Part shown: positions 6,126-62,909 of the stretch, in pieces | How positions within the stretch are numbered: position 1 is the first letter of the stretch | Layout: the number at the start of each line of letters is the position of its first letter | From: Parcubacteria group bacterium Greene0416_36 | GTDB taxonomy: Bacteria; Patescibacteriota; Patescibacteriia; VMEV01 | Length of the DNA: 64,000 nt | Assembly: GCA_007375725.1 (NCBI GenBank) | Contig: VMEV01000006.1 | Coordinates: forward strand, 6,929 to 70,928 | Direction of reading: 5' to 3' | Program-made: the position numbers and the translations under genes | The notes under the pieces: model-generated | Seen by the model: the letters and a program-made list of their open reading frames with translations, nothing else | The model's database searches: none | Told to the model about the DNA's origin: nothing

Positions 6126-6136
6126 ATAAAGAGGCT

Positions 6137-6215
6137 TTAGGCATTAGGCCATTAGCTTATTAAAAACAACCGTGGCTGTTTTCTAAGAAGCTAATTCCTA
6201 ATAGCCTAATGCCTA
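6137..6215. repeat. Palindromic intergenic element (family R2: GGCATTAGGC..TTAGCTTATTA / TAAGCTAATGCCTAATAGCCTAATGCC), copy 1
   Basis: Imperfect ~80-bp inverted repeat. Similar copies at 13108-13200 and 20612-20655. Confidence 0.75.
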
Positions 6216-6222
6216 ATTACAT

Positions 6223-6579
6223 ATGTTAGGTTTTCAACTCCTTGCTTTTATCGTAATATTGGCCATCGTCTCGAAAATTTTTGCCAGCTATCGAAAGAGA
6301 GAAATATCTTTTAGATTATTGCTGATCTGGATTGTATTTTGGTTCCTTGCTCTTTTATTTATTTGGCGACCGAATATCTCTTCAGAGATGGCGGTCCTCT
6401 TGGGAATTGGAAGAGGAACAGATTTGGTGGTTTATTTTTCAATTATATTTTTATTTTATTCTTTGTATCGGATCATGCTCCGTATGGATCGGCTGGACCG
6501 GAATGTCACGGATTTGGTGCGCCATATCGCGGTCCATAACCCTGTGGCAAAGCCCAAAGATGAAGATTCTCATAATTGA
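6223..6579 (+). CDS. Small membrane protein, DUF2304-like (GT2-associated)
   Basis: 118 aa with 3-4 TM helices, sandwiched between two GT2 genes. This pattern is typical of DUF2304. Confidence 0.55.
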   Translation: MLGFQLLAFIVILAIVSKIFASYRKREISFRLLLIWIVFWFLALLFIWRPNISSEMAVLLGIGRGTDLVVYFSIIFLFYSLYRIMLRMDRLDRNVTDLVRHIAVHNPVAKPKDEDSHN

Positions 6580-7643: not shown

Positions 7644-7675
7644 GGCATCGTGTTTACAATGATCGTGCGAATCAT

Positions 7676-8797
7676 ATGAAAATCGCTCAAATCGTTTCCA
7701 CCTTTTGGCCTTATTTGGGCGGCATGGGCAATGTCACTCGTTTTTTTTCTCAGTATTTATCCGCGAGGGGCCATGAAGTGACGGTCATTACTCCGGAATA
7801 CAGAAAGAAAAATACCGCCGAAGGGGAAGAATCTTTTCCATTTGAAATCCAGAGAATCGCTCCGGTGTTACAATACGGCAATGCTGCGTACTTGTGGGGA
7901 CTTGGCCAATATCTCTGTCAATACGATATTTTGCATCTCCACTATCCTTTTTTCGGCGGAGTGGAACCTTTATTTTTCTACAAACTGCGGCCCAATCAGA
8001 AATTAGTGATCACTTATCACATGGAATTTATTCCCTCGTCGTTTTTTTTATCTTTGGCTTCGAGGCCGGAGAGGCTGCTCCGGGGATCGGTATTTGATCG
8101 TGCCTCTCGGGTGACGGTGTCCAGTCTGGATTATATTGAGCATTCGGGAGACCGGGCTCTCTATACCCAGACTCCGTCGAAATGGATCGAATTACCCTTT
8201 GGTTTTGATCCGCAATTTGATAAAGCGTTATGGACGGGGGGGCAAAAAAATCGTTCACAGAATCCTTTTGTTTTATTCGTGGGCGCCCTGGATCGGGCGC
8301 ATCAATTCAAAGGACTGGGCGTGCTACTGGATGCGATGTGTCTTCTGCCACGGGAGGTTCACTTACGGATCGTGGGAGAGGGGGACTGCCGTGTACTTTA
8401 TGAGAAAGAAGTCCTGACTTTGGGTCTAGCCGAGCGCGTGCGGTTTTGCGGGAGGGTCTCGGATACCATTTTGGGAGAATCTTATCGCGACTGCTTGTGT
8501 CTGGTTCTTCCTTCCACTGGGAAAGGAGAGGCTTTCGGCCTGGTTGCGGTCAATGCCATGGCCGCGGGAAAGCCAGTTATCGCCTCCAATTTGCCGGGAG
8601 TACGAACCGTGGTGGACCCTGGAGTGACCGGTTTTCTGGCCACTCCCGGAGACCCTAAAGATCTTGCCCTGCGATTATCTCATCTGACGGACGATCCTAT
8701 ACTAGCTATTTCAATGGGGGAACAAGGCTACCGGCGGGCTAAAGAAAAATATGACTGGGCTCATTTGGCTCTAAAATTAGAGGGAGTTTATTTATGA
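7676..8797 (+). CDS. Glycosyltransferase family 4
   Basis: MKIAQIVSTFWPYLGGMGN N-terminus. C-terminal GEAFGLVAVNAMAAGKPVIAS matches the GT4 E-x7-E region. ORF opens at 7571 but the ATG at 7676 is the plausible start. Confidence 0.75.
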   Translation: MKIAQIVSTFWPYLGGMGNVTRFFSQYLSARGHEVTVITPEYRKKNTAEGEESFPFEIQRIAPVLQYGNAAYLWGLGQYLCQYDILHLHYPFFGGVEPLFFYKLRPNQKLVITYHMEFIPSSFFLSLASRPERLLRGSVFDRASRVTVSSLDYIEHSGDRALYTQTPSKWIELPFGFDPQFDKALWTGGQKNRSQNPFVLFVGALDRAHQFKGLGVLLDAMCLLPREVHLRIVGEGDCRVLYEKEVLTLGLAERVRFCGRVSDTILGESYRDCLCLVLPSTGKGEAFGLVAVNAMAAGKPVIASNLPGVRTVVDPGVTGFLATPGDPKDLALRLSHLTDDPILAISMGEQGYRRAKEKYDWAHLALKLEGVYL

Positions 8798-14962: not shown

Positions 14963-15060
14963 CCCCACTTCGCTCTTTTGTCCGGAATTAAAACGCTGTC
15001 AATTAATTTGACAGCGTTTTTGACGCGCGATAAAATTGAGAAAATATTTTTAGAAAAACT

Positions 15061-36204: not shown

Positions 36205-36235
36205 AAATTAAGAATGAAGAATTAAAAATGAGCAA

Positions 36236-36267
36236 CAAAAAACATGACTTTTCCAAGTCATGTTTTT
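36236..36267. terminator. Bidirectional terminator hairpin between pyrG and rpmA
   Basis: aaaaaacatgacttttccaagtcatgtttttt. Confidence 0.65.
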
Positions 36268-36285
36268 TGTTTGAATTCAGAAGAT

Positions 36286-36573: not shown

Positions 36574-36777
36574 AGGTTTGCTTTATAAAATTCTTGCGGC
36601 CCTGCCGTGTTTCTGGGGCAGAGAGGCTTATTCAGCCAAAGAATTTGATAGTGAGGTTAAAAAACAGTGTTATATTAGAAAATATTCGAGGGTTTGTCAA
36701 TTTTTTGGCATGCAACTGATTTTTTTGACATATATCAAAAAGATAGCTATTATATATCAATAATTATCCATTATCTT

Positions 36778-37053
36778 ATGACCACACAAGTTATCTTTAG
36801 AATCGATGAAAAGACAAAAGAACAGGCCATGAAAAAGGCACATCATTCTGGTTTGTCTTTTGCCACCGTGCTCAAACTCGCTACCTATGCTTTTGTAGAA
36901 GACAAATTCACGATCAGCCTCAATCAAGTAGAGCCCTTCAATTTACAAACACGGAAGAAACTCAATAAAATCCAAAAAGATCTTTCTTTGCGTAAAAATT
37001 TATCGCCACGGTTCAAATCTGCCAAAGATGCTATGGGATATCTCATGAAATAG
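36778..37053 (+). CDS. RelB/DinJ-family antitoxin (ribbon-helix-helix)
   Basis: TQVIFRIDEKTKEQAMKKAHHSGLSFATVLKLA resembles DinJ. Immediately upstream of a RelE-like gene. Confidence 0.6.
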   Translation: MTTQVIFRIDEKTKEQAMKKAHHSGLSFATVLKLATYAFVEDKFTISLNQVEPFNLQTRKKLNKIQKDLSLRKNLSPRFKSAKDAMGYLMK

Positions 37054-37057
37054 ATTT

Positions 37058-37315
37058 ATGGATGTTATTTTTCATCGGGATTTTAAAAAACAATTCAAAA
37101 AATTGCCAGTGAAAATTCAAAAGAAATTTGAAGAACGTTTGAACTTATTTTTAAATGAACCTGATAATTCAACTCTCAATAACCATTCGGTGGAAAAAGC
37201 ATACCCGAAATCGAGGAGTATCAATATAACCGGAGATTATCGAGCTATTTATCAAAAAGACGAAGACCTGATTTGTTTTATGATCATCGGCACACACTCT
37301 GAATTATATTCATGA
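37058..37315 (+). CDS. RelE/YafQ/ParE-superfamily toxin
   Basis: 85 aa. ...ITGDYRAIYQKDEDLICFMIIGTHSELY. 4-bp gap after the antitoxin. Confidence 0.6.
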   Translation: MDVIFHRDFKKQFKKLPVKIQKKFEERLNLFLNEPDNSTLNNHSVEKAYPKSRSINITGDYRAIYQKDEDLICFMIIGTHSELYS

Positions 37316-38369: not shown

Positions 38370-38611
38370 AATGATTCGAATATTTCAATATAATAGGGAA
38401 AATCGTACCCAAAAACAAGCCACTCTTAAATTTGACAATAGTCTTAATAATATGGTATATAGACTTCAGTTATTTCGACCGTCTAAACTATAGATAAAAC
38501 AGTTATAAATCCCGCATAAGTGCCATATAGAAATAGAATAAAAAAGGCTATTTTTGGGGAAATTATGCGTGGAATTTAACTGGTTTATCTATAAATAAGA
38601 AAGATAGAAAA

Positions 38612-38935
38612 ATGAAAAATTGGAAGACAACTGAAAAAAAAGCGTTCTTGAAAAAAATACAGACATTCGCAGAAAAAGCCCTATCCCAAGCTACGAAAGA
38701 GATGAGCTTCGAGGAGGCAATGAAGGCTTTGGAAAGCGGTGAGAAAAAAAAGGAGCAGACTTTTCTTGACTTGTTTTCTGCTTCTGCCGTAAACAAAATC
38801 TCCCCTCCCACAAAACCCGAGGACTCGGAATTTCTCCAAGTGGTCGGTAAAGATTTCTTGGTTCCCGCATGCGATGGCAAGGCAACGATCATCGGATCGA
38901 GCGGGGTGTTCCATTACATTGATCCCAATTTTTGA
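38612..38935 (+). CDS. Small hypothetical protein, paralog A (inverted duplicate)
   Basis: MKNWKTTEKKAFLKKIQ...PACDGKATIIGSSGVFHYIDPNF. 60-70% identical to the convergent gene 38889-39257. Confidence 0.5.
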   Translation: MKNWKTTEKKAFLKKIQTFAEKALSQATKEMSFEEAMKALESGEKKKEQTFLDLFSASAVNKISPPTKPEDSEFLQVVGKDFLVPACDGKATIIGSSGVFHYIDPNF

Positions 38936-39257
38936 AATTGGGATCAATATATGAGAAAAACCCGTTCGATCCGGCAATGGTTGCTTTGCCATCGCATGCG
39001 GGGATGACAAGATCTTTTTGGATCACTCGAAGGAATTCTGAATTCTGGGGTTTTGGGGGAGGGACATTTGTCGAGCTTGTTTTTATGGTAGAAAACAAGT
39101 CAAACAAAACCTGTTCCATTTTTCTCTCGCCATTCTCCAAAGCCCCCATTGCCTCATCAAAACTGATCTCTTTCGTGGCTTGAGATACGACTTTTTTTGT
39201 AAGTTTTTCTATTTTTTTCAAGAACATTTTTTTTTGAGCAGTTTTCCAATTTTTCAT
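38889..39257 (-). CDS. Small hypothetical protein, paralog B (inverted duplicate)
   Basis: MKNWKTAQKKMFLKKIE...PACDGKATIAGSNGFFSYIDPNF.. 3' end overlaps paralog A across the palindrome at 38918-38948. Confidence 0.5.
   Translation of the reverse strand: MKNWKTAQKKMFLKKIEKLTKKVVSQATKEISFDEAMGALENGERKMEQVLFDLFSTIKTSSTNVPPPKPQNSEFLRVIQKDLVIPACDGKATIAGSNGFFSYIDPNFKNWDQCNGTPRSIR
38918..38948. repeat. Perfect 13-bp inverted repeat (attgatcccaatt / aattgggatcaat, 5-nt spacer) at the junction of the two inverted paralogs
   Basis: Each arm encodes the IDPNF C-terminus of one paralog. Confidence 0.85.
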
Positions 39258-39434
39258 TTTTGATCCTTTTTTTATTGCTTTTAACCAAAATCAGCCACAA
39301 ACAATATGGCAGAAATAATTTTGATTTTTTAAAAATGAAGCAGAGTATATTTACCACACTATTGCATATATTGTCAAGAATAAATTATAAATAAAGCCAA
39401 TCTTAGTATTTTTCTGTAAAATTCCAATAAAATG

Positions 39435-39463
39435 TTGACGAAATTTCGATTTCACCCTAGTAT
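39435..39463 (+). promoter_or_regulatory. Sigma70-like promoter TTGACG-17-TAGTAT, followed by a ~190-nt structured leader (candidate L10 leader) upstream of rplJ
   Basis: Consensus -35/-10 hexamers with 17-bp spacing. Leader 39464-39649 is GC-structured, as expected for L10(L12)4 autoregulation. Confidence 0.55.
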
Positions 39464-39649
39464 TTGCTCATACCGTAGACAGCAGGCTTGGTGCGCCGAA
39501 ACCCGAAAGGGTGAAGGCGACGAGTACCATATAAGTCCTGCCGAGGCATATTCATATCATTTTCGCATAATTGCGGGGAGAAATATGGATTTACCCCATT
39601 TTTTAAAAGTCGATTACGGTATGGTTATAAACCATATTTTTTTATTTCT

Positions 39650-40192
39650 ATGGCAAAAAGTAAACAAGCCAAAGCCCAAACCATGGAAACTTTAGTGACG
39701 GGATTTGCCAATTCCAAATCCGCGATTTTCGCTAATTTCATGGGACTCAAAGTCAAGGACATGATCAAATTGCGACGTACTTGCCGCAAGGAGAATGTTC
39801 AGTGCTTGGTTCTCAAAAAGAGCCTACTTCGAAAGAGTCTGGCTGATGCCAAACTGCATCCTGATTTCGACACCTCGGTTATTTCAAAAGGAGTTGCCGT
39901 ATTTTTGGGTGCGGATGAGGTAGGACCGGCCAAAATCATCAAGGAATTCGCCAAGGATCATCCCGTGGTCGAATTCTACGGCGGAGTGCTCAATGATCCC
40001 AATATGGCCGACAAAATGTTGTCCATTGAGGCGGTCAAAGCCTTGGCTTCCATCCCCAGCCGAGCCGAACTCTATGGCAAACTGGTCGGGACGCTCAATG
40101 CGCCGATGTCCGGTTTCGTCAATGTTCTCTCGGGCAATTTGCGCGGACTGGTCAATACGCTCAAGGCGGTAGCGGATAAGAAGACGGCTTAA
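39650..40192 (+). CDS. rplJ: 50S ribosomal protein L10
   Basis: AKSKQAKAQTMETLVTGFANSKSAIFANFMGLKVKDMIKLRR.. matches L10. Confidence 0.85.
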   Translation: MAKSKQAKAQTMETLVTGFANSKSAIFANFMGLKVKDMIKLRRTCRKENVQCLVLKKSLLRKSLADAKLHPDFDTSVISKGVAVFLGADEVGPAKIIKEFAKDHPVVEFYGGVLNDPNMADKMLSIEAVKALASIPSRAELYGKLVGTLNAPMSGFVNVLSGNLRGLVNTLKAVADKKTA

Positions 40193-42177: not shown

Positions 42178-43365
42178 GATATTATGAAATCAAAATCTCA
42201 AATTCACTCCCCCCTTATCGCCTGGTTCGCCCTCCACCAGCGCGTTTTGCCGTGGCGCGAAATCCGCACTCCTTACCGCTCTTGGATTTCCGAAATCATG
42301 CTTCAACAGACGCAGGTGGACACGGTGGTGCCTTATTTTTTGCGTTGGATGGAGAAGTATCCAGATGTGGAAACATTGTCGAGGGCTTCGGAAGAGGAAA
42401 TAGTGAAGATGTGGGAGGGGCTGGGATATTATTCGCGCGCGAAAAATATTCTAAGAAGCGCCAAAATGATTATGGAACGATGGGGCGGACGGTTTCCGGA
42501 AAATTATGACGATATATTGTCCCTGCCCGGAATAGGGGAGTATACCGCGGGCGCGATTCTGTCGATTGCCATGAAAAAGCCCTATCCGATTGTGGACGGC
42601 AATGTCATGCGCGTGTATTCACGTCTTCTCCGAGACGACACGGACATTTCTTCGACGGCTGGCAAAAAGCATTTCTGGAAAATTGCCGAAAAATACCTGG
42701 ATCGCGAAAAACCCCATTTGTACAATGAGGCTCTTATGGAATTAGGCGCCTTGGTCTGCACTCCGGCCAATCCCAAATGCGCCGTGTGTCCGTGGCACGA
42801 TATTTGCGTAGCTCGCCGTGACAAAAAACAGTCCCTGTATCCCGTCAAAAATAAAAAAAACGACTGTCAAAAACTGAATAAAATTGCGTGGATTATTAGA
42901 AAAGAGGATTTAAAAAAAGGATCCATGATTTGGATTCAAAAAACGCCTATGGGTCAGGCGAGGGGAGGGCTGTGGGAATTCCCGACGGAGGATGTAACGG
43001 GTCAGAGCACGGTTCGTAACCCCGATGCGCCTCGGGGCGGGTTTAAAACCCGCCCCTACCGAGGAGATGCCACATACCTCTGCCGTGTCCAGCATTCCTA
43101 CACGAAATATCGGGTGACCCTGGACGCGTATTGCGTTGAAATTCCAATGGATGGGTCTGATGGTGTAGCGGCGCAGCGCGCTGTGCCCCTACAGGCTTGC
43201 ATAGATAAACAAAACGGCAAATGGGTCGTTTTGGATGAGCTAAAAAACTACACCTTTTCTTCTGGCGCCCGAAAAGTGCTAAAGTACTTACAGAGAATAA
43301 ATCCCTCCCCAACCCTCCCTTTGACAAGGGAGGGAGCTGTTTCCCCCTTGTCAAAGGGGGACTAA
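42172..43365 (+). CDS. mutY: A/G-specific adenine DNA glycosylase MutY (with C-terminal NUDIX-like domain)
   Basis: HhH-GPD region, 4Fe-4S C-x6-C-x2-C-x5-C (CTPANPKCAVCPWHDIC). Contains an in-frame P1 palindrome (43165-43194). 3' end runs into an R1 element. Confidence 0.85.
   Translation: MQDIMKSKSQIHSPLIAWFALHQRVLPWREIRTPYRSWISEIMLQQTQVDTVVPYFLRWMEKYPDVETLSRASEEEIVKMWEGLGYYSRAKNILRSAKMIMERWGGRFPENYDDILSLPGIGEYTAGAILSIAMKKPYPIVDGNVMRVYSRLLRDDTDISSTAGKKHFWKIAEKYLDREKPHLYNEALMELGALVCTPANPKCAVCPWHDICVARRDKKQSLYPVKNKKNDCQKLNKIAWIIRKEDLKKGSMIWIQKTPMGQARGGLWEFPTEDVTGQSTVRNPDAPRGGFKTRPYRGDATYLCRVQHSYTKYRVTLDAYCVEIPMDGSDGVAAQRAVPLQACIDKQNGKWVVLDELKNYTFSSGARKVLKYLQRINPSPTLPLTREGAVSPLSKGD
43165..43194. 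repeat. GC-rich palindrome family P1 (GTAGGGGCACAGCGCGCTGTGCCCCTACA), degenerate copy inside mutY
   Basis: gtagcggcgcagcgcgctgtgcccctacag, read in-frame as VAAQRAVPLQ. Confidence 0.7.
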
Positions 43366-43617: not shown

Positions 43618-43623
43618 ATCTCA

Positions 43624-43668
43624 AAATAAATATAGGGATGTAGCATGCTACATCCCTATATTTATTTT
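43624..43668. terminator. Rho-independent terminator hairpin
   Basis: aaataaatatagggatgtagcatgctacatccctatatttatttt. Same core (gggatg(c/t)agcatgctacatccc) as the hairpin at 11181. Confidence 0.7.
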
Positions 43669-43733
43669 GAGCATTTCTTTCACGAATCTCTCTAAAATGC
43701 TATATTCAGAAAATAAAAAACTCTATTTCTGCT

Positions 43734-49459: not shown

Positions 49460-51541
49460 TTACAAATCCCAAAACTCAAACACCCACACCTTCCCGCCGT
49501 CGATTGGATAAACACTATCCGCGACGGCTTTTGTATTTTGGAGGATACTCTCGAAGTGGGTCCAGTAGGGATGGAGGACGAAATAGGCTTGGTGGACGCC
49601 AGCGATGGCAGCAGCCTGTTTCATAGTCTCGCGCGAGGGCTGCTCGTAAACCATGTCGAGATATTTCTGGTAAAGAGGGGCGCCAGTGGGAATGGAGTAG
49701 AAGAAATTATCACCATAATATTTGCGGAAACCAAATTCACGGAGCGCGGCCGCGCCGAGATTTTGATTGCCGAGGACGATGTATTCTTGGCCATCACTAG
49801 ATGTAGGGGCACAGCGCGCTGTGCCCCTACATCGCGACAATTCTTCAATCTTATGAACCGCCTTGATATCCGACAGAGACACGCTGTACCCGCGTCCGGT
49901 TTCGAAAATATGATGGCGGGGGTAGGAGAAATAGAAAGAGTTAGCGAGGAGAAATACGAGAAAAAGACTTAAAAATAAATGAAACACCCGATTTTTGAGG
50001 CTTTTCTGATAAATGAAATAAAGTCCCGCTAAGAAGAAGGGGAACAGGAAATAGAAGCTCAATTGAATAAGGCGATTGGCATAATCAAGCCGCTCGTATT
50101 CGATGAGATTGCTAAAATTAATGAAGGAGGCGAGAAGGAAGGCGTTGGAGAGGAGGATGAGGAAGGAGGTGAGGAAGAGCGAACGGACCTTTTCAAGTAA
50201 GGGCGTATTGCAATACGCCCTTACGGATAGAGCTACCCCCAATACAACAACGGCCCCATAAATCCAATACACCCCCACCTTCCAAAAATACGCCAAGTCA
50301 TAAAACAGACTGAAATTTTGATTCCATGCCGACCAGTTGAGAAAAGAAAATAGGCTGGAAATAGGGGTAAATCCCTGCCAAGAAAAATTCTCAAAAGGCG
50401 CGCCGGAGAGAATGCCTTGTAGTAAAAATACTGCGGGAACAGCAAAGCAAAGCAGAATTATGGCTGATATTTGAATGAATCGAGGAAAATACTGCTTGAG
50501 TAAAATAAGTATCGGCAAAATAAGCGCGGGAATGCCGACCAGAGGGTGGATGGCGAGAGTGGCGAGGGCGAAAATCCACAGAAGTAAGGGCGTATGGCCA
50601 TACGCCCTTACGAGTAAAGCAGGCTCTATCTTCTGCAAATAAATCCATGCCTCGCACAAAACAAACACCAAAAAGACAGTCGCCAAATTATAAGGCGTGG
50701 GCATGATCCAGTAGGAGAAGGGGAGGATGAGGAGGGTGAAAGGTAATAACAACCATGTCGTGCCTTGTAGGGGCACAGCGCGCTGTGCCCCTAGACCTAG
50801 GGGCGTCGATACAAGCGCCCTCCACACAAAATACGGCACTGCAAAAATACACATCGCCAAGAGTATCTTTTCGATCCAAAAAGGAGATATCGACAAAATT
50901 TTTGCAAAAAACACGACCAAACTATACTGACCGATATAATAAAAAGGTTTGGGCGTAATCGTCCCATGATCCAGAATATATTGCTCGGTCGCTTGGTGAA
51001 TAAACGGATCAAAACCAAATCCGACCGGATAAATAATGAGAGCCGCGGAAACGGAAAAAAGAAAATGGCACGCAATCGCGAAGAGAGCCAAACGCGCCTG
51101 TACACCTTTCTTGATCAAGAGCATCAAAATCCCCGTACAGGCGAAATAGAGGGCGAAGAATTCGGAGCCGACTTGCTCCCAGGGAGAACGGATACTATCC
51201 CAGGTTCGGTGGAGATAGAGATAGTAGGTGAGACAGGCGAGGAGGGTGGCTACCCAAAACCAAGAGCATCCCCGAGGTAAGGGCGTATTGCAATACGCCC
51301 TTACCGACATGGGTAGGGCTGGTGGAAGTAAGGGTACAGCCGCGGCTTGGTGGAGCGACAGGCTCAGGATGACAAGGGTGTGGGATATTAAGGACAATAT
51401 AACAACAATAGCGAGCATCGGCGTGCTCAAATCAACAATATAAAACAGCGCCGTGCCCCAAATAGCGACTAGGGCGAAAAAAAGCATGAGGCTTCTCATC
51501 AGGCCAAATTTGCTGTATGTTTTTAATAAAGTTTTAATCAT
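49460..51541 (-). CDS. Large polytopic membrane protein (putative GT-C-type glycosyltransferase/polymerase-like) carrying five in-frame palindromic insertions
   Basis: At least 12 predicted TM helices. C-terminal soluble domain. ATG at 51541 (the ORF track starts at TTG 51547). Contains P1 copies at 49802-49831 and 50766-50794, and P2 copies at 50197-50224, 50584-50611 and 51277-51304. Confidence 0.6.
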   Translation of the reverse strand: MIKTLLKTYSKFGLMRSLMLFFALVAIWGTALFYIVDLSTPMLAIVVILSLISHTLVILSLSLHQAAAVPLLPPALPMSVRAYCNTPLPRGCSWFWVATLLACLTYYLYLHRTWDSIRSPWEQVGSEFFALYFACTGILMLLIKKGVQARLALFAIACHFLFSVSAALIIYPVGFGFDPFIHQATEQYILDHGTITPKPFYYIGQYSLVVFFAKILSISPFWIEKILLAMCIFAVPYFVWRALVSTPLGLGAQRAVPLQGTTWLLLPFTLLILPFSYWIMPTPYNLATVFLVFVLCEAWIYLQKIEPALLVRAYGHTPLLLWIFALATLAIHPLVGIPALILPILILLKQYFPRFIQISAIILLCFAVPAVFLLQGILSGAPFENFSWQGFTPISSLFSFLNWSAWNQNFSLFYDLAYFWKVGVYWIYGAVVVLGVALSVRAYCNTPLLEKVRSLFLTSFLILLSNAFLLASFINFSNLIEYERLDYANRLIQLSFYFLFPFFLAGLYFIYQKSLKNRVFHLFLSLFLVFLLANSFYFSYPRHHIFETGRGYSVSLSDIKAVHKIEELSRCRGTARCAPTSSDGQEYIVLGNQNLGAAALREFGFRKYYGDNFFYSIPTGAPLYQKYLDMVYEQPSRETMKQAAAIAGVHQAYFVLHPYWTHFESILQNTKAVADSVYPIDGGKVWVFEFWDL
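49802..49831. repeat. GC-rich palindrome family P1, copy in membrane-protein gene (read CRGTARCAPT)
   Basis: tgtaggggcacagcgcgctgtgcccctaca. Perfect 30-bp palindrome, about 70% GC. Confidence 0.85.
50197..50224. repeat. Palindrome family P2 (GTAAGGGCGTATTGCAATACGCCCTTAC), copy 1 (read VRAYCNTPL)
   Basis: Perfect 28-bp palindrome inside the CDS. Confidence 0.85.
50584..50611. repeat. Palindrome family P2, copy 2 (GTAAGGGCGTATGGCCATACGCCCTTAC; read VRAYGHTPL)
   Basis: Perfect palindrome with a centre variant. Confidence 0.85.
50766..50794. repeat. GC-rich palindrome family P1, second copy in membrane-protein gene (read GAQRAVPLQ)
   Basis: tgtaggggcacagcgcgctgtgcccctag. Confidence 0.85.
51277..51304. 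repeat. Palindrome family P2, copy 3 (read VRAYCNTPL)
   Basis: gtaagggcgtattgcaatacgcccttac. Confidence 0.85.
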
Positions 51542-53269
51542 ATGCAAGAGTCAATGCAAGCATTTATAGCTAAATTTCGTAATTTTTTAAATAGGCCGAA
51601 GGTACGAGAATACGCTCCTTTCTTTATTTTAGCGTGTTTTCTGTTTCCGCTATACTCTTACCTCTATTGGACCACGGGTAATCTATTCAATTCTCCGGAT
51701 GAGACGGCCGCTTCTTTCTTTTCACGACTTTATATTGAAACCGGGACTTTTTCATACACCGAACCTTTTAATTCACTGCTTCCCGGGTGGATCCACCCAC
51801 GAAGCATGGTGATTGAAAATGGAACCGTTCTGCCTATCTCTTTTCTGGGGATTTTATTGTTTTTAGGAACTCTTGGCGGAATAGTAGGACCGTGGAGCAT
51901 TCCCTATATCATCCCGCTCCTGTCGGCGATTATTCCTCTATTTTTCTACGGATTTGCCAAACATATTTTCTCATCAAAAACTGCTTTTTGGAGTGCGATT
52001 TTATTGGCCATACATCCGGCTATTATCTACTATAACGAAAGGAATTTTCTGCCAAATGCCTTATTTCTCGATATTTTCATTTTATTCCTCTTCTTTTTTT
52101 TCGCCTGGATATCATGGAAACAGAAGCAAAAATGGATTTTCGCGGTATCGAGTTCGTCTCTCTTGGCACTGCTTATTTCTATTCGACTCTTTGAGGCCAT
52201 ATGGCTGGGGCCGCTGGTACTGATCTTATGCATTCTGTTTTGGAAGAAGAATTCGATGAAAGAATGGCTGATGTGGGGAATATTATGCTCGCTCTTCATG
52301 ACACCTCTCTTGGCGGGTCAATGGATCACATACGGATCTCCCTTTAAAACAGGATATGGCATCACTGGGGATATTATTCCGCCGCCGGAACCATCCGAGG
52401 TAATTGGAGAGCCTGCGATACCCCCCGAACCACCGATTCCAGAACCCCCCGCATGCAAAAGCGTCGAGTGCCTGCCCGGATTCAACAAGGTCTTTCCTTT
52501 TGGCCTAGACCGATATAATATCACTCATAATTTCCAGGCTATTGGCGTGAACCTCTTGGGCATAATTTTCCTGCCTTGTCTTGTTGGGCTTCTTTTATTT
52601 TTCTGGAAAGAAAAGGCCTTTCCTCAAAGAGTTTACAGTGTTTTGGCGCTAGGCATTGCTTTGTATCTCATTGCGGTTTATGGAAGCTGGGGAGTCCGGG
52701 ATAATATCAATCCAAATATTACGACTATTGGACTATCCCATGTGCGCTATTGGCTGCCGATCTGGGCTTTCTTCCTGCCTTTTAGCGCGTACCTTTATCT
52801 CAAAATTACCCGGGGAAACAAAATAGCCATGAGCATAATTATTCTAGGACTATCCATTTACTCAGGAAAAGTCGTCTTGGGATCTTCTGAAGACAGCATT
52901 CATCATGTGTTAGCCAGCATCCGCCACTATCAGCAAGTCCAGAATGATTTTTCCGCTTTGGCTCCCGAGGACTCCATCATCATTTCCGAACGCAGCGACA
53001 AAATTTTCTTTCCCAAGTATCGCGTGATTTCAGTTCCCGATAAGAATTACGTGCATGTGTTTTCTCATATCCAAAAACTTTTAGAACAAGCTCCGATTTA
53101 TTTTTATACCCAAATGCCCGATTCCGATATCCAATACCTCCAGTCCCGGCATTTAGAATTTCAGGGGCTTTATTTTAAAGAAGTAAAGAAGTGGGAGGAT
53201 GGGTTTAGGATGCACGTCATCCGCGATCAACAAATCCCCCTTAATCCCCCTTTGACAAGGGGGACATAG
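51542..53269 (+). CDS. GT-C fold glycosyltransferase (ArnT/PMT-like, family 39/83)
   Basis: Polytopic membrane protein. First extracytoplasmic loop has NSPDETAASFF (DE motif). 575 aa. 3' end runs into an R1 element (..PLNPPLTRGT). Confidence 0.6.
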   Translation: MQESMQAFIAKFRNFLNRPKVREYAPFFILACFLFPLYSYLYWTTGNLFNSPDETAASFFSRLYIETGTFSYTEPFNSLLPGWIHPRSMVIENGTVLPISFLGILLFLGTLGGIVGPWSIPYIIPLLSAIIPLFFYGFAKHIFSSKTAFWSAILLAIHPAIIYYNERNFLPNALFLDIFILFLFFFFAWISWKQKQKWIFAVSSSSLLALLISIRLFEAIWLGPLVLILCILFWKKNSMKEWLMWGILCSLFMTPLLAGQWITYGSPFKTGYGITGDIIPPPEPSEVIGEPAIPPEPPIPEPPACKSVECLPGFNKVFPFGLDRYNITHNFQAIGVNLLGIIFLPCLVGLLLFFWKEKAFPQRVYSVLALGIALYLIAVYGSWGVRDNINPNITTIGLSHVRYWLPIWAFFLPFSAYLYLKITRGNKIAMSIIILGLSIYSGKVVLGSSEDSIHHVLASIRHYQQVQNDFSALAPEDSIIISERSDKIFFPKYRVISVPDKNYVHVFSHIQKLLEQAPIYFYTQMPDSDIQYLQSRHLEFQGLYFKEVKKWEDGFRMHVIRDQQIPLNPPLTRGT

Positions 53270-55127: not shown

Positions 55128-56249
55128 ATGGATAATATATTCGAAAAATACGGGCAATCTTGCACTTACGGCAAGAAGAAAGCGGAGGCAGAAGAGATCA
55201 TCAGTAAAATTGATCTAATGACTTTGCCAGCCCTTAAAAATGGACAGACAAAGTTTTTCGCGGCGGAAATCAACCACGAATTAAGTGGAAAGGGGAGGTT
55301 CATCGTTAATTCGACAGAGTATAGCCCCAAAGTAGGTTCGACGAAAATTCTCGGGTCAGATAGACACATTCCAAAAGACATCACGAAAATATTTCCAGAA
55401 CTTTGCAACGAAAAATTTTTCGTGGCAACAGAAGTGTTGAGGCACCATGTAAGCCAACCCACGGAAAGCCTAATCGTAGAATTTCTGGGAGATAATAAAC
55501 TCAGAGAGTGGAAAGTGACTGCAGTAGTTGATCTCTCTACAAGAGAGATTATCGACCTATTTGAATTCCTAGAGTCGAACTTAGCCTGGAGACATTCTTT
55601 GTCTGAACCTGAATTCTGCGTGGAGGGAGTCCGATTTGGTGGCAGAGGATCTCATTTTAAAGATGATGCTTTAAATGAGCTCATCACAAGATCTCTGAAG
55701 CAAAGTGGTTCAGAGTTATCAACTCGTTATCTTGTGAAAAATTTCGACAAAGAAAATTGCCTCTATGTTGAGTGGCTTAAAAAATGGGGGCTTCTGCCGA
55801 ATGGGGAAAAGAATTTTCGAAAAATTACGGGATTAAAGGGGTTAAAAGAAAACTTTAACTCCACTAAAGCCGGAAAATTTTTCAACGAACCCATCACCGG
55901 ACTTCCAGATCAATGGAATTGGTTGTCCGCAATTCCAAAAGAACGTAGAACGATCATTGTTCAGGACGGACAAGCCACATTACCCACTGGTGAAACATTT
56001 CTAGTAAAAAACGTTCGTGGTCCAGACGGCAGTTCAAGGGGATATATTCACACCAGAGAAGATGGGAGTGTGGATGTCTTCCTACGACGAGGAAGTCGTG
56101 AACTGGGTTTTTGCGGATGGTTATGGGCGCAAAAAAAAGTGGGAGAGATCATTGCCGCAATCGATCCCTTGGATAACTATGAAGGACTGAGTCAAGGCAA
56201 TGCTCCCATTGCTGGAAGAATCAACGAGTGCATTGATTTTTCCTTCTAA
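55128..56249 (+). CDS. Hypothetical protein (373 aa), no recognisable domain
   Basis: Soluble, low-GC. Strong RBS-like AGGAG upstream. Terminator hairpin downstream. Confidence 0.4.
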   Translation: MDNIFEKYGQSCTYGKKKAEAEEIISKIDLMTLPALKNGQTKFFAAEINHELSGKGRFIVNSTEYSPKVGSTKILGSDRHIPKDITKIFPELCNEKFFVATEVLRHHVSQPTESLIVEFLGDNKLREWKVTAVVDLSTREIIDLFEFLESNLAWRHSLSEPEFCVEGVRFGGRGSHFKDDALNELITRSLKQSGSELSTRYLVKNFDKENCLYVEWLKKWGLLPNGEKNFRKITGLKGLKENFNSTKAGKFFNEPITGLPDQWNWLSAIPKERRTIIVQDGQATLPTGETFLVKNVRGPDGSSRGYIHTREDGSVDVFLRRGSRELGFCGWLWAQKKVGEIIAAIDPLDNYEGLSQGNAPIAGRINECIDFSF

Positions 56250-56273
56250 GTTTTTTTTCGGTCAACTTGCACT

Positions 56274-56306
56274 AAAAAAGGTGAAGTAATAAACTTCACC
56301 TTTTTC
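56274..56306. terminator. Bidirectional terminator hairpin
   Basis: aaaaaaggtgaagtaataaacttcacctttttc. Confidence 0.65.
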
Positions 56307-56337
56307 ATTTTGTCCAAAAAAAGAGATTTTTTGTATT

Positions 56338-56970
56338 CTACACATCCATCGCCGACTTCACATTCGCATTTGTATTATCATCGAGCTGTTCGATGCGTTT
56401 CTCTCGGGCTTGGAGTATCAAATTTTCGAGGTATTGAGGTGATTTGACGCCTTCGATATCAAGCACCAAGGTCGGACCAGCCGTGCGCAGCTGAATTGTC
56501 GCATAATCAAATAGAGTTTCCATCACTCCATATTTGCGGTAGGTAATATCCTGCACGCGCTCAAGATTGGCTTCCGACATAATAATATGGAAAAATCCCT
56601 GCTGATCTTGGTCAATGATGCGCAGATTAGTCACGAAAAAAAGGGTGTGTGACCAGATATAGAGGAACCGGATAATGGCTATAAACAAAATCAGATAAAA
56701 TACAGCGAGTCCGGCCACCCCCCAAAAGGCCCATCCCCACTGAGATAAAAAGCCAATCAGAAAAGGGGAAAGGGCACCGGGCAAAACAAGAAACAAAAAT
56801 AAAAAACACAGCGGGCCAAATTGGCTCATCCAATACCAGCGATGCGCTGCGAGTACTACCTCGCCTTTCTGAAGAGGGACATTTTTGGGTTTAAGCATAA
56901 AAAATAAGTCACCAACCTTCGCCCCGCAAAAAGGCAGGGCTACGGCCTGGCAAAGAAAGTTAGAAATCAA
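56338..56970 (-). CDS. Bacterial PH-domain (bPH_2/DUF304, YdbS/YdbT-like) membrane protein
   Basis: Two TM helices followed by ...LFFVTNLRIIDQDQQGFF.....DITYRKYGVMETLFDYATIQLRTAG. True start possibly at 56898. Confidence 0.55.
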   Translation of the reverse strand: MISNFLCQAVALPFCGAKVGDLFFMLKPKNVPLQKGEVVLAAHRWYWMSQFGPLCFLFLFLVLPGALSPFLIGFLSQWGWAFWGVAGLAVFYLILFIAIIRFLYIWSHTLFFVTNLRIIDQDQQGFFHIIMSEANLERVQDITYRKYGVMETLFDYATIQLRTAGPTLVLDIEGVKSPQYLENLILQAREKRIEQLDDNTNANVKSAMDV

Positions 56971-57346
56971 AAGTCAAATTTATCCTAAACCAAAAAACTG
57001 AATTTGACAAACAATTTTATGTATGGTTAGATTTTGCGGTAGCGACATAATTTGTTGTTTGTTTGAATATAATAAACAAAAAAGGGGATGCTCAACCGAG
57101 ACACCCCTTTTTTGTTTATATTGGGTCTTAAAATGTATCTTTTACGACACATTAACCAAAACAACTTGATTTTCCAAAATAAACTGATAAGATCAACTCA
57201 TCATTCGCTTTTATCTTTAGCAAAAGATTAACCGATCAACCGATCGGTTTTTATTATTTTTATAGTAATATTGGTAATTTTCATGGCCTTAACATAAAAT
57301 TATTACGAATTCTTTAGAGTAGCTTAGGAAATTTTTTTTTATTTTT

Positions 57347-58516
57347 ATGAGGAGGCATTATCACACCTACGGCTTTTACGGGATATTCTTTTTAGCGTCT
57401 CTTTTGTCATTTGGGTCCATCCATAGCCAAACCCAATCCCTCGACCGAGACCTCTCCTCTATCCACCTGTCTCATTTATATAACAATGTTTTACGACACA
57501 ATAGAATCGTCGATGTAAAAACTGAGTATGTAAATAGGGAGAATTTTATAAAAGGACTGTACCTCACTGCGCAGACGGCGGGATCGAAGCGCCTTGCCGA
57601 CTTCATTGAACTTGCCAATAAAACCGAGATCAATGCCTTTGTGATCGATGGCAAGAATCCGAATGGCAGTCTGCCATTTATCCCGGAAGATGAATCTCTC
57701 AAGGATTATAGTGAAAAGAATAAAATGCCACTCAAAAATCTGAATGAAATTTTGAAAGACCTCAAGAAAAATAATATTTATAGCATAGCCAGAATCATCA
57801 TTTTTTTGGATCCTTTTTATGCGTCTAAGCATCCGGATCTGATTTTTTATAATAAAAATAAGCAGCCTTGGAAAGATTTTAACGGCAATAAGTGGCTCAA
57901 TCCAGTCAATCAGCAGATGTGGGACTATAACGTACGTGTCGCAAAAGAATTACACGAGAGAGGGTTCGACGAGATTCAATTCGACTATATCCGATTCCCT
58001 TCCGATGGCGTGATTCGGGATCTTACGTGGACGCACAAAGGAACCAAGGAAGAAACCATGCGAGATTTTTTCAAATACTTGCATGCAGAATTGCGCGAGA
58101 AAGAAAATATAAAAATTTCCGCAGATTTATTCGGTCTGACCTTCAATATGACCGAATTCGACCTCAATATCGGCCAGCGCCTCGAATACGCCGCCCCTTA
58201 TTTCGACGCGATCTCGCCCATGGTCTACCCGTCGCACTACCCCACCGGCTACATGGGTTTCAAAAATCCGGCCAATTATCCTTATGAAGTCATTTATCAG
58301 GCCATGGAAAAAGGAAAACCCATTTATAAAAAATTAGGACTCCCATTCACCGCCCGCCCATGGATACAGGCCTTTGATATGGGCGCCCTCTACAATCGAG
58401 AGCGAACCCGGCTTCAAATGCAGGCTATCGAGGATGCCGAAGGCGCGGGATGGATCCTATGGAATGCGCGGAATGAGTATAAAAGTGAGATATTAGATGA
58501 GGAAATACAAAAATAA
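57347..58516 (+). CDS. Putative glycoside-hydrolase-like TIM-barrel protein (DUF4015-like)
   Basis: Signal/TM N-terminus. NKWLNPVNQQMWDYNVRVAKELHERGFDEIQFDYIRFPSDG resembles DUF4015 proteins. Confidence 0.45.
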   Translation: MRRHYHTYGFYGIFFLASLLSFGSIHSQTQSLDRDLSSIHLSHLYNNVLRHNRIVDVKTEYVNRENFIKGLYLTAQTAGSKRLADFIELANKTEINAFVIDGKNPNGSLPFIPEDESLKDYSEKNKMPLKNLNEILKDLKKNNIYSIARIIIFLDPFYASKHPDLIFYNKNKQPWKDFNGNKWLNPVNQQMWDYNVRVAKELHERGFDEIQFDYIRFPSDGVIRDLTWTHKGTKEETMRDFFKYLHAELREKENIKISADLFGLTFNMTEFDLNIGQRLEYAAPYFDAISPMVYPSHYPTGYMGFKNPANYPYEVIYQAMEKGKPIYKKLGLPFTARPWIQAFDMGALYNRERTRLQMQAIEDAEGAGWILWNARNEYKSEILDEEIQK

Positions 58517-59829: not shown

Positions 59830-62800
59830 ATGATTGTAAATCAATCATTTTCAATAAAGCAGAGTATCGTCCTCCCTGCTTTATTTTTATTTGCGACTTT
59901 ATTGCCCCAGACTGTACTTGGAGCAGTTCCAAGTACACTGACCGCTACCAATGTAGAACCCGCTAGCTTGCTCGTTGGTTCTACCAATACCGTAACTGTT
60001 AATTTCACAACAGTTGGAGGCATCAACAAAAAAGATGCTATCAAAATTACATTCGGAGCTGGATTTAATATAGCCGCAGCTTCCGGAGGTGCTTGTGCTA
60101 CCTTCGATGACGCTGGCACGGTTGTGACATCCGTCGCTGGCCAAGTTGTCACCCTTACAAGACAGAACGATGGGTCCATTCAGACCGCGGCCGCCGAAAC
60201 TTGTACCATTAACAATATCGTGAACCCGGTGACTATCGGTTCTACAGGAACCTACTCTATTCAAATCGTCAATCCCAGCAATAATGTCGTGCAAGAAGAA
60301 GATCTTGCTGTCACGGCCGATACCATAGTAGCCGACACCGTAGCTCCAACCATCACAATCACGGCTCCCACGAAAACATCCGGCGCGGTGGTCACAGACA
60401 CGACGATTTTAGTGACTGATAATGCGGCGGTCACGGCAGCCAATGTGATTATCGATCCCTCATCGACCGCTACGGCAACCCTCTCGTGCATCCAAACTGA
60501 TTCAAAAACAGTAAACTGCACAACCACAATTTCTTCTTCCGGTGATCTGGTCATCAAAGCGACTGATAGTTCCACAAATATATCCACATCTACGTCGGCT
60601 GGATACACCATCACGCTTCCGGACACAACCGTTCCAATTGTAACTATCACCGCCCCTACAAAAATCTCAACTGCAGCTATTACCGATACGACCATTTTAA
60701 TTACTGATAATAAAGCTATCACTGCGACCAATATCTTAGTGGACGGGACTTCGACTGCTACAGCCACCCTCAACTGCACCCAGACGAATGCTACTACGGT
60801 TAACTGTACAACTAACATTTCCACTTCTGGAAATTTGGTTATCAAAGCCACAGACGATGCTGCAAATATTACAACTGCCACGGAAACCGGTTATTCCATC
60901 AATCTTCCTGATACAACTGCTCCAACAATCGCGATTACAGCTCCTACAAAAAATGATGTCGCTATTATTACTAATACAACTATTGCCGTTACTGACAACA
61001 AAGCTATCACAGCTGCGAATGTTGTAGTAGATGGAACCTCAACGGCTACAGCAACCATCACCTGCACTCAAACGAATGCAACTACGGTAAACTGCACCTC
61101 TACGGTCTTCACCTCAGGGAATTTAGTTATCAAAGCAACCGATGATGCAGCCAATGTAACCACCAAAACCGAGGCGGGTTATGTTATCACCATTCCAGTT
61201 GTCGACACCACTGCCCCCACAGTTGCGATCACCGCACCTACGAAGACATCGGCCGCGACTATTACCGATACAACCATTGCAGTTACCGATAATACAGCCA
61301 TCACGGCTACCAGCGTCGTCGTGGATCCCACTTCGACAGCTACAGCTACCCTCAACTGCGTCCAAACCAATGCGACAACAGTGAATTGCACCAGCAGTAT
61401 CTCTACTTCGGGCAATTTAGTGATCAAAGCAGTAGATAATGCAGCGAACGCTACAACAACTGCTGAAAACAATTATACGATCAATTTACCCGATACAACG
61501 GCCCCAGTCGCGACTATTACAGCCCCAACAAAAATAGCGGCAGCCGCGATAACCGATACCACTATTTCTATTACAGACAATAAAGGAATTACAGCCATCA
61601 ATATAACAGTTGATGTTTCCTCTACAGCTACAGCCGTTCTCAACTGTGTACAAACCAATGCCACTAAGGTTGACTGTACTACTAATATTTCTACTTCTGG
61701 AGACTTGATCATCAAATCCGCGGATGATGCTGGCAACTCCAACCTGACAACTGAAGCAGGCTATACGGTCAATCTGCCTGATACTACGGCTCCAGTTATA
61801 GTATTCAATGCCCCAACCAAGGCTTCGACTTCCAACATTACCAATACCACCATCACTATTACAGATAATAAAGCAATTACAGCAGCTAATGTCATTATTG
61901 ACCCATCCTCCACGGCCACAGCCACGATCGCCTGTACTCAAACCAATGCCACTACAGTGGACTGCACCAGCAATATCACCACCTCCGGCAATTTGACGAT
62001 CAAGGCTACGGATAACGCAGTTAATGTCAGCACGGTGAGTGAAAATGGTTATTCAATTACTCCTCCACCCATTCAGATACAAAACCAGACCTTTGGGGGT
62101 TCCCAGATTTGCCGAACTGGTGAAGGAAGCATTATAATTAATGGAAATGCTATCAGTTCCTCTTCTCGGGAAGTCATGATCTCAGTTATATTGAGTGCTA
62201 ATAATACGCCAGTTGAACTGATCGCGAGCGAATCCGCCACATTTGAAGGAGCCAATTATCGGCCTTATTCCGGACAATTCTCCTTCATCCTCAGCCCGGC
62301 CTCAGGAGAGAAAAAAGTCTATGCCATTGTCCGAACCACCTGCTTTGAAACCCCGGTTCTGTTCGATACGATCAACTTAGAAGCAGGCGCGACTGAAACG
62401 ATCTTGCCCCCCACCCCGCCAACCGAAAATACAAATATCCCCCCCGCTCCAACGGAAAACAATACCAATGTCACTCCAACCCCTACTCCCACTCCCACTG
62501 AAAATAATGCCAATCTGAATCCTAATTCCAATGCAGGATCCAATGGATCTGGAACGGAATCTGGAACAGGTGCAGGCGCTGGAATCGACAATATCCCCGG
62601 ATCAGGTACTTTGCCGGAAAATAGCGTGGTAGATAATACCCAAGCCGACGGCGAAATCTTAGGTATCAAGCTCTACGCCCCCGGACAATTGATTCGAGCG
62701 CTCGTGGACAGAAAAGTCTATATTATCAATAAGAATGGAACCAAACACCATATCTTGAATCTCAAAGAACTCGCAAAATCTTATCGGGGCAAAACAATAT

Positions 62801-62847
62801 TTAATACAACGATTGCGATGATAAAATTGTATGCCAATGAAAAATAA
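59830..62847 (+). CDS. Large surface protein with at least 7 tandem ~98-aa Ig-like repeats, Thr/Pro-rich linker and conserved C-terminal domain
   Basis: Signal peptide. Repeats (TAPT..ITAPTK.S.A.ITDTTI.VTDN.AITA.NV.VD.TSTATATL.C.QTNATTVNCT..IS.SGNLVIKATD) span about 60340-62100. PT-rich segment 62400-62520. Confidence 0.65.
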   Translation: MIVNQSFSIKQSIVLPALFLFATLLPQTVLGAVPSTLTATNVEPASLLVGSTNTVTVNFTTVGGINKKDAIKITFGAGFNIAAASGGACATFDDAGTVVTSVAGQVVTLTRQNDGSIQTAAAETCTINNIVNPVTIGSTGTYSIQIVNPSNNVVQEEDLAVTADTIVADTVAPTITITAPTKTSGAVVTDTTILVTDNAAVTAANVIIDPSSTATATLSCIQTDSKTVNCTTTISSSGDLVIKATDSSTNISTSTSAGYTITLPDTTVPIVTITAPTKISTAAITDTTILITDNKAITATNILVDGTSTATATLNCTQTNATTVNCTTNISTSGNLVIKATDDAANITTATETGYSINLPDTTAPTIAITAPTKNDVAIITNTTIAVTDNKAITAANVVVDGTSTATATITCTQTNATTVNCTSTVFTSGNLVIKATDDAANVTTKTEAGYVITIPVVDTTAPTVAITAPTKTSAATITDTTIAVTDNTAITATSVVVDPTSTATATLNCVQTNATTVNCTSSISTSGNLVIKAVDNAANATTTAENNYTINLPDTTAPVATITAPTKIAAAAITDTTISITDNKGITAINITVDVSSTATAVLNCVQTNATKVDCTTNISTSGDLIIKSADDAGNSNLTTEAGYTVNLPDTTAPVIVFNAPTKASTSNITNTTITITDNKAITAANVIIDPSSTATATIACTQTNATTVDCTSNITTSGNLTIKATDNAVNVSTVSENGYSITPPPIQIQNQTFGGSQICRTGEGSIIINGNAISSSSREVMISVILSANNTPVELIASESATFEGANYRPYSGQFSFILSPASGEKKVYAIVRTTCFETPVLFDTINLEAGATETILPPTPPTENTNIPPAPTENNTNVTPTPTPTPTENNANLNPNSNAGSNGSGTESGTGAGAGIDNIPGSGTLPENSVVDNTQADGEILGIKLYAPGQLIRALVDRKVYIINKNGTKHHILNLKELAKSYRGKTIFNTTIAMIKLYANEK

Positions 62848-62876
62848 ATCATCCCGATGATGATTTGATAAGAAGA

Positions 62877-62909
62877 AAACGGTCCGAAGCAATATCGGAC
62901 CGTTTTTTG
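62877..62909. terminator. Rho-independent terminator hairpin
   Basis: aaaacggtccgaagcaatatcggaccgtttttt. Confidence 0.7.

Follow-up and report, generated by a model that had tools for sequence, protein, structure and literature searches.

Two paralogous open reading frames (ORFs), which we call ORF-L and ORF-R, lie tail to tail across a perfect palindrome at positions 38612 to 39257 of a 64,000-nucleotide stretch of Parcubacteria group bacterium Greene0416_36 (contig VMEV01000006.1), the whole of which is referred to below as the window. Their locus tags are those of Parcubacteria group bacterium Gr01-1014_18 (GCA_007376335.1), in which both products are annotated as hypothetical. We take the locus to be, most likely, a genuine though rather unremarkable gene remnant, namely a pair of truncated paralogues ("stubs") from a family of diversity-generating retroelement (DGR) targets of the candidate phyla radiation (CPR), joined by rearrangement at a palindromic motif. 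The features that make up the locus are listed here; the two possible promoters are our own reading.

38612..38935, + strand: ORF-L, 107 aa, locus tag G01um101418_132; truncated family member, ending ...YIDPNF*
38889..39257, - strand: ORF-R, 122 aa, locus tag G01um101418_133; truncated family member
38918..38948, no strand: perfect core palindrome, ATTGATCCCAATTT-TTG-AAATTGGGATCAAT, with 14-bp arms and a 3-nt loop; joins the two gene fragments
38597..38931, no strand: left arm of the diverged palindrome; starts 15 nt before the ATG and runs through the IDPNF codons
38935..39272, no strand: right arm of the diverged palindrome, mirroring the left arm at 77-79% complementarity
38597-38779 / 39090-39272, no strand: outer inverted segment, 183 nt, 79% complementary
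38803-38931 / 38935-39063, no strand: inner inverted segment, 129 nt, 77% complementary, 3 nt between the arms
38825..38932, + strand: retained core segment of ORF-L, residues 72-107
38934..39041, - strand: retained core segment of ORF-R, residues 73-108, SEFL..IPACDGKATI..YIDPNF
39078..39248, - strand: N-terminal helical hairpin, ORF-R residues 4-60; predicted local distance difference test (pLDDT) 75-89
38432..38465, + strand: possible ORF-L promoter, TTGACA..TGGTATATA; 74% complementary to 39344-39377
39344..39377, - strand: possible ORF-R promoter, TTGACA..TGGTAAATA; mirror partner of 38432-38465

Geometry and coding character of the pair

The 3' ends of the two ORFs overlap by 47 bp (38889-38935), and a repeat finder returned a diverged palindrome of about 676 bp centred on 38933, with arms that are 77-79% complementary. 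In all of this the locus agrees with a reading made earlier from the sequence alone, which had described paralogous ORFs of 107 and 122 aa, an overlap of about 47 bp and a long, diverged palindrome of about 650 bp. The paralogy that it proposed also stands, at a measured protein identity of 62% (67/108 residues, BLASTP E 5e-50) in place of the 65% it had estimated. The outer and inner inverted segments are in register save for a 3-nt indel in the linker. At the core, the sequence-only reading had located the perfect repeat correctly but described it as 13-bp arms with a 5-nt spacer; a better description is two 14-bp arms (38918-31 and 38935-48) and a 3-nt loop (38932-34). The centre of symmetry, 38933, is the first base of the ORF-L TGA stop (38933-35), which is made up of loop sequence and the first base of the right arm; the stop is the inverted loop (TTT TGA). 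As RNA, the core hairpin has a predicted free energy of -16.1 kcal/mol on either strand, and no A or T tract lies alongside it.

The mirror symmetry far exceeds chance. Perfect stems of at least 12 bp are expected at a rate of 0.025 per window-sized Markov-1 random sequence. The whole window holds about 17 perfect stems of at least 10 bp, the core palindrome included, against 0.5 expected, and the other 16 or so are mostly terminator-like. Upstream of the ORFs the two sides are similar only from about 15 nt before each ATG, and alignable homology was not detected beyond about -15. The TTGACA pair farther out may be residual upstream homology; it matches the consensus weakly, fails the rules of the promoter scanner and is a pattern that is uncommon in the window. 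An Rfam mir-85 match on the core hairpin is spurious.

Several lines of evidence indicate that both arms are protein-coding. The arms differ at 21-23% of positions with an excess of synonymous change, and the alternative reading frames of the arms contain 4-5 stops each. Over 107 aligned codons (Nei-Gojobori method) the synonymous divergence (dS) between ORF-L and ORF-R is 0.74 and the nonsynonymous divergence (dN) is 0.245, giving a ratio of 0.33, with 28, 20 and 36 differences at codon positions 1, 2 and 3. When divided by part, dN/dS is lowest (0.24) in the retained core segment, where all of the family-invariant residues are kept in both stubs; the helices have 0.30 and the disordered linker 0.73. 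Measured against the outgroup protein P0003, a full-length relative described below, dN is 0.560 and 0.565 for the two stubs. Both arms are thus under coding constraint and are evolving at equal rates.

The sequence-only reading had itself raised the possibility that the structure is a fold-back chimera of assembly, or that one ORF is only non-coding mirror sequence. A palindrome that is internal to a contig of a metagenome-assembled genome (MAG) invites such suspicion, and we nonetheless give an artefact or a non-coding structural palindrome next to no probability. The arms of a chimera would be identical, and these arms are diverged by about 22%; moreover, a 1665-bp Logan contig from SRR8438314, which is an independent assembly, is 100% identical to the window over the whole junction (one contig aligned). 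These two observations exclude the chimera. The exact ORF-R protein is present on 9 contigs, and in 7 further places where it occurs the neighbouring genes are mostly the same as in the window. A non-coding palindrome is contradicted by the stops in the other frames and by the homology of both arms to a protein family. Nor does the locus resemble an invertible, phase-variable segment: the arms abut with a 3-nt spacer, the aligned assembly has the same configuration, and no recombinase domain is annotated among the genes within +/-5 kb of the two ORFs, the sequence-only reading having seen none nearby. There was no evidence of ongoing inversion or of alternative orientations in the assemblies compared.

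A family of retroelement targets

The two ORFs had been taken for copies of a small gene of unknown family, and neither part of that description is supported by comparison with other proteins. An exhaustive HMMER search of 1.84 billion representative proteins with a profile of the two ORFs gave 8 matches of 107-1735 aa. Among them is P0003 (223 aa; E 1.8e-19 over positions 2-113), which is G01um101418_476 and is encoded elsewhere in the same MAG as the stubs. Several proteins of 159-218 aa match at about positions 72-113 (E 2e-4 to 7e-4), and the homologue alignments extend past IDPNF into the next five residues of ORF-R. The 1735-aa match, P0004, carries five tandem repeats of PPMVDGKATYVDENGVLHYMDGT that match the family motif ACDGKAT..F.YID (E 3e-9), which may be only a compositional or short-motif resemblance. 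A follow-up profile search yielded 458 family clusters, a lower bound on the size of the family; they are mostly of 210-225 aa, unnamed or called "hypothetical", and without Pfam domains. Where the sources are named they are groups of Patescibacteria, for example Falkowbacteria, Moranbacteria and Paceibacterota; a few of the MAGs bear other source labels, possibly wrong. Neither the ORFs nor their full-length relatives matched Pfam, NCBIfam, PADLOC or PHROGs at E <= 0.01, and a word-indexed search with ORF-R returned only ORF-R and its paralogue ORF-L. P0003 matches the genome loci examined below at 28-43% identity, with E down to 6e-30.

An alignment of 63 sequences shows the layout of the family: the N-terminal region is variable and spans about 60-80 aa, and after it comes a conserved core of about 150 aa, with the consensus ILxLISxGE..IDACDG..TLA.AKDVF.S.IDSDFKNWG.D ... 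LCLTQHQI ... FFLFK ... FFVA.V ... VW.A...HRVVVPQL. Full-length members have about 215 aa, and the last 40 or so core residues are the variable region (VR). Both stubs keep the N-terminal helical hairpin and the first 35 or so of the roughly 150 core residues and end at the conserved motif IDPNF/KNW, the general form of which is ID..FKNW(G/D). They are the sole aligned members without the C-terminal 115 aa or so. Among the 120 family matches listed, which range from 153 to 249 aa, none ends at the IDPNF motif; the shorter of those listed (about 150-200 aa) are without the N-terminus and have the core. The N-terminal domain of the stubs is lineage-specific, being common only to ORF-L, ORF-R and full-length P0003. 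Sequence comparison therefore places the stubs as 5' fragments of a gene of about 215 aa that belongs to a large, mostly patescibacterial family.

Structure predictions point in the same direction. In the model of the 122-aa ORF-R the helical hairpin is retained, while the core segment has pLDDT 41-66 and has lost its strand, with a predicted template-modelling score (pTM) of 0.31 for the model. In the model of full-length P0003 the same core segment has pLDDT 92-97. The retained core segment is thus not predicted to fold alone, and in these models it behaves like a broken domain. The family as a whole has a confident predicted structure, and no relative of it was detected among solved structures.

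The family profile was searched against the six-frame ORFs of 65 genome loci. In about 25 loci a second, short match on the same strand lies 200-450 bp downstream of the gene and covers only the last 40 or so profile positions. When this repeat was aligned to the 3' end of the gene in 24 loci (111-134 nt each), 399 of the 446 mismatches fell at adenines of the repeat, the others being at T (23), G (12) and C (12). In the locus designated L005 the alignment spans 115 nt, and 15/15 mismatches are at adenines within AAC/AAT codons. More than 20 loci have, directly downstream, a reverse transcriptase (RT; Pfam RVT_1) that carries the YADD motif. Because the mismatches to the template repeat (TR) are adenine-specific and the RT lies directly downstream, the full-length family consists of DGR variable (target) proteins, in the order VR, TR, RT. 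In two loci, L012 and L060, a second family gene stands right after the RT.

L005: gene 6001-6642; VR 6518-6632; TR 6961-7075; RT 7500-8495
L005, L008, L011-L013, L016-L019, L023, L025, L026: loci with VR and a downstream template repeat
L032, L035-L037, L040, L042, L043, L052, L055, L059, L060, L069: further loci with VR and a downstream template repeat

The copies in the window differ from these. The 64-kb window contains no RT homologue, no TR-like match and no C-terminal remnant of the family (best E 2.9), and its only two family matches are the stubs themselves. Neither an RT nor a TR was found in the 12.7-kb locus of P0003. Having no variable region, the stubs cannot be diversified and are fragments, not DGR targets.

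DGR clade 2 is confined to Patescibacteria/CPR, and its targets are typically without recognisable domains (Roux et al. 2021, PMC8144416); the present family fits this picture. The stubs resemble the CPR targets of that study in being homologous to a family with VR, TR and a YADD RT and in matching no domain model, and they differ from them in lacking the VR, about 115 core residues, the TR and the RT. Two "hypothetical proteins" are now assigned to a large family of DGR targets, found mostly in Patescibacteria. The structure of the family is relevant to the question whether DGR variable regions always occupy C-type-lectin folds, one speculative possibility being that the family core may be a variable scaffold other than a C-type lectin. 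It is also relevant to the suggestion of Roux et al. 2021 (PMC8144416) that DGR targets evolve in a modular way.

Family genes repeatedly adjoin the rplJ-rplL / rpoB-rpoC cluster. In the window (38.6-40.7 kb) the stubs stand beside rplJ; in L005 (1-6642) the family gene is downstream of rpoB; and in the locus L007 (1-7910) one family gene lies between rpoC/yceG and rplL-rplJ, with a second copy across rplJ.

The junction motif and the origin of the pair

On the minus strand ORF-R reads ATT GAT CCC AAT TTC AAA AAT TGG GAT CAA, or I-D-P-N-F-K-N-W-D-Q. Residues 1-108 of ORF-R mirror ORF-L; residues 109-112 are K-N-W-D (38933..38922) and fit the consensus FKNW(G/D); and residues 113-122 (QCNGTPRSIR) are antisense read-through of ORF-L. 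IDPNF is accordingly the middle of the motif ID..FKNW(G/D) and not the natural C-terminus that the sequence-only reading had taken it for. In the family, conservation of the N and W that follow the F reaches at least 90%, and in ORF-R the K-N-W-D is encoded by the reverse complement of the IDPNF codons of ORF-L. By our own estimate from codon counts, N and then W would occur at those two positions by chance with a probability of about 5e-4.

The sequence GATCCCAATTT, encoding DPNF, is the reverse complement of AAATTGGGATC, encoding KNWD. Because ORF-R reads the consensus K-N-W through the palindrome, the simplest reading of the sequence is that the self-complementarity of the core is native coding sequence, the ancestral gene having encoded DPNFKNWD in self-complementary codons. 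A distant full-length member at the locus designated L072 (SYIDPNFKKWDLD, YIDPNFKKWD) carries TATATTGATCCCAATTTTAAAAAATGGGATC and is coded at the motif as TATATTGATCCCAATTT..TGGGATC, so that it has a native quasi-palindrome, GATCCCA/TGGGATC, at the same place. Self-complementarity of the motif across the family was rejected, the mean best stem in 36 homologues being 3.3 bp against a background of 3.4 bp. Only 0.8% of the synonymous codings of DPNFKNWD yield a 10-bp stem. The palindrome is specific to this lineage and its choice of codons.

Slipped-strand or RecA-independent short-homology deletions occur between direct repeats, and the history we prefer, with even credence, is a deletion of this kind between two convergent full-length paralogues. 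The paralogues would have stood tail to tail and would already have diverged (dS about 0.7). Because a palindrome reads alike on both strands, the copies of the motif in the convergent genes would act as direct repeats of 11-14 nt. A deletion from motif to motif would take away the 3' part of each gene with its variable region, as well as whatever lay between the two (possibly a TR/RT cassette), and would leave the 5' parts joined by one palindromic motif. ORF-R would retain its native K-N-W-D, and ORF-L would gain a stop from the inverted loop. The truncation would be recent, the stubs having no disabling mutations so far, and the stubs themselves are probably remnants in decay that do not work as variable proteins. 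As in other short-homology deletions, identity of 11-14 nt at the end-points would leave one copy of the repeat; here, however, the repeats are direct only through the palindrome, the product is mirror-symmetric and the ancestral state is unobserved. The locus is a clean, sequence-resolved case of a conserved peptide motif in self-complementary DNA as the breakpoint that cut two paralogues at the same residue.

Hairpin-mediated inverted duplication, the mechanism suggested by the sequence-only reading, ranks second to this deletion; we regard it as possible but distinctly less likely. It would take the form of a fold-back (template-switch) duplication of a single full-length gene on the minus strand. 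A snap-back at the native quasi-palindrome of 10-11 bp in the DPNFKNWD codons would make a reverse copy of the 337 bp at the 5' end, rejoining upstream of the radical-SAM gene by a second switch would replace the gene's own 3' part, and the resulting perfect palindrome of 674 bp would later diverge to 78% while selection retained both truncated proteins. Tandem inversion duplications in Salmonella have been proposed to arise by snap-back at quasi-palindromes, and their junctions also fall at short self-complementary sequences with a near-zero spacer. The present locus differs in having two arms and no direct-inverted-direct triplet, in its divergence of 22% and in a junction that is still symmetric and not remodelled. 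The exact symmetry about 38933 and the perfect 31-nt core are what a fold-back predicts, and a native quasi-palindrome is available to it, one that follows from the K-N-W reading and from L072 and is not observed directly. That both ORFs are intact at dS 0.74 and dN/dS 0.33, with equal rates, would imply selection on the truncated forms, and one complex event suffices, whereas the deletion model requires two.

Three considerations lead us to prefer the deletion. Long perfect palindromes are unstable in bacteria, and one that was never perfect is easier to maintain: a fold-back would start as a perfect 674-bp palindrome with a 3-nt spacer, expected on general grounds to be highly unstable, whereas the product of the deletion was at no time perfect. 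A copy made by a fold-back would also need its end to fall, by chance, immediately before the ribosome-binding region, so as to give a complete ORF, and would then have to acquire a promoter. Lastly, the distribution of dN/dS mirrors the architecture of the full-length protein, which is natural if the genes were complete through most of their divergence; with a fold-back, the strongest constraint (0.24) would rest on a 35-residue piece that is not predicted to fold alone. The third, direct copy is absent as well, the window containing two family matches.

Other observations weigh against the deletion. The ancestral convergent pair of full-length genes is not observed. L072 has the only opposite-strand pair among the 65 loci, and its copies are separated by two unrelated genes, which makes it a weak precedent. 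No sister genome or population variant that would date the truncation was found, and two scans of Joint Genome Institute (JGI) metagenomes, for the protein pattern and for the DNA of the palindromic motif, found nothing. Both stubs are still intact as ORFs, each with a plausible ribosome-binding region, a state that fits functional genes equally well, and the argument from domain constraint assumes that the 35-residue core piece has no function of its own.

A function for the stubs, for example through the autonomous helical hairpin that they have in common with P0003, seems to us unlikely. The same low standing attaches to a combined history in which a fold-back produced the stubs and selection kept them as VR-less DGR accessories, invariant helical-hairpin proteins that associate with P0003, for example by hetero-oligomerising with it through the hairpins or by acting as decoys or adaptors. 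If it were true that the stubs function, they would constitute the first case in which VR-less derivatives of such a target are retained as separate genes. We consider it more doubtful still that they are two complete small paralogues, a short form of the family, whose overlap and hairpin serve as a bidirectional terminator or antisense regulator. They are intact, annotated as genes and under purifying selection, the N-terminal helical hairpin is confidently predicted to fold by itself, and the RNA hairpin is stable (-16.1 kcal/mol); yet no family member whose length was seen ends at the IDPNF motif, and the core segment is an incomplete domain. As a terminator, too, the core hairpin is a poor candidate. 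Like bidirectional intrinsic terminators, it is a perfect hairpin between or overlapping the 3' ends of two convergent ORFs, but its stem is AT-rich toward the loop, it has no A/T tracts and it lies inside both coding regions. It was not called by the scanner and lacks the T-tract of the genome's own terminators, and with flanks of ...CATTAC and ATATATG... the core palindrome was rejected as an intrinsic terminator.

An inversion through the palindromic motif between two directly oriented full-length copies, giving this 5'-5' junction and a reciprocal 3'-3' junction, is quite improbable. Several copies on one strand are a frequent arrangement in the family (L007, L012, L038, L060), and a motif that is palindromic can pair with itself whichever way it is oriented. 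The reciprocal product ought to carry the C-terminal parts, however, and no C-terminal remnant was found in the 64-kb window (best E 2.9); a word-indexed search seeded with P0003 gave no 3' fragment protein either, although this search is insensitive and returned P0003 alone. GC skew is continuous over 38.9 kb, and the flanking genes are mostly on the + strand on both sides. A large inversion was rejected, since the window shows neither a discontinuity in GC skew or strand bias nor a reciprocal product.

Other features of the window

Perfect hairpins of another kind occur at five places in the window. Each consists of an A-tract, a stem of 12-24 bp and a T-tract, and they are presumably bidirectional intrinsic terminators. 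Two of them lie after tRNA-Arg and between the convergent genes pyrG and rpmA.

14990-15020: A-tract/stem/T-tract hairpin
36234-36271: A-tract/stem/T-tract hairpin
43620-43671: A-tract/stem/T-tract hairpin
56275-56305: A-tract/stem/T-tract hairpin
62876-62906: A-tract/stem/T-tract hairpin

GC-rich perfect palindromes of 26-28 nt, in two families (TGTAGGGGCACAGCGCGCTGTGCCCCTA and GTAAGGGCGTATTGCAATACGCCCTTAC), lie inside an ORF for a 695-aa membrane protein (49460..51547, - strand). They encode the in-frame peptides CRGTARCAPTS and VRAYCNTPL, and none is expected by chance. They resemble the Rickettsia palindromic elements, small palindromic elements inserted in frame in coding sequence.

49802-49829: GC-rich palindrome
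50766-50793: GC-rich palindrome
50197-50224: GC-rich palindrome
50584-50611: GC-rich palindrome
51276-51305: GC-rich palindrome
43166-43191: degenerate copy

On one side of the stubs, an 87-aa ORF annotated as a gene (39432-39695) overlaps an Rfam L10_leader match (39455-39652) directly upstream of rplJ. The match scores 34.3 bits, under the gathering score of 44, and the interval 39432-39695 probably specifies a leader RNA rather than a protein. On the other side, a region at 36694-37315, between rpmA and the radical-SAM (RlmN-like) gene, contains a gene for a RelE/ParE-family toxin (37058-37315; Pfam ParE_toxin/YafQ_toxin) together with a short upstream partner ORF. Farther away, the sign of the GC skew switches at about 56000-58000 (from about +0.02 to -0.17); the switch could mark an origin or terminus of replication, or it could stem from the composition of the 1005-aa gene at 59830-62847.

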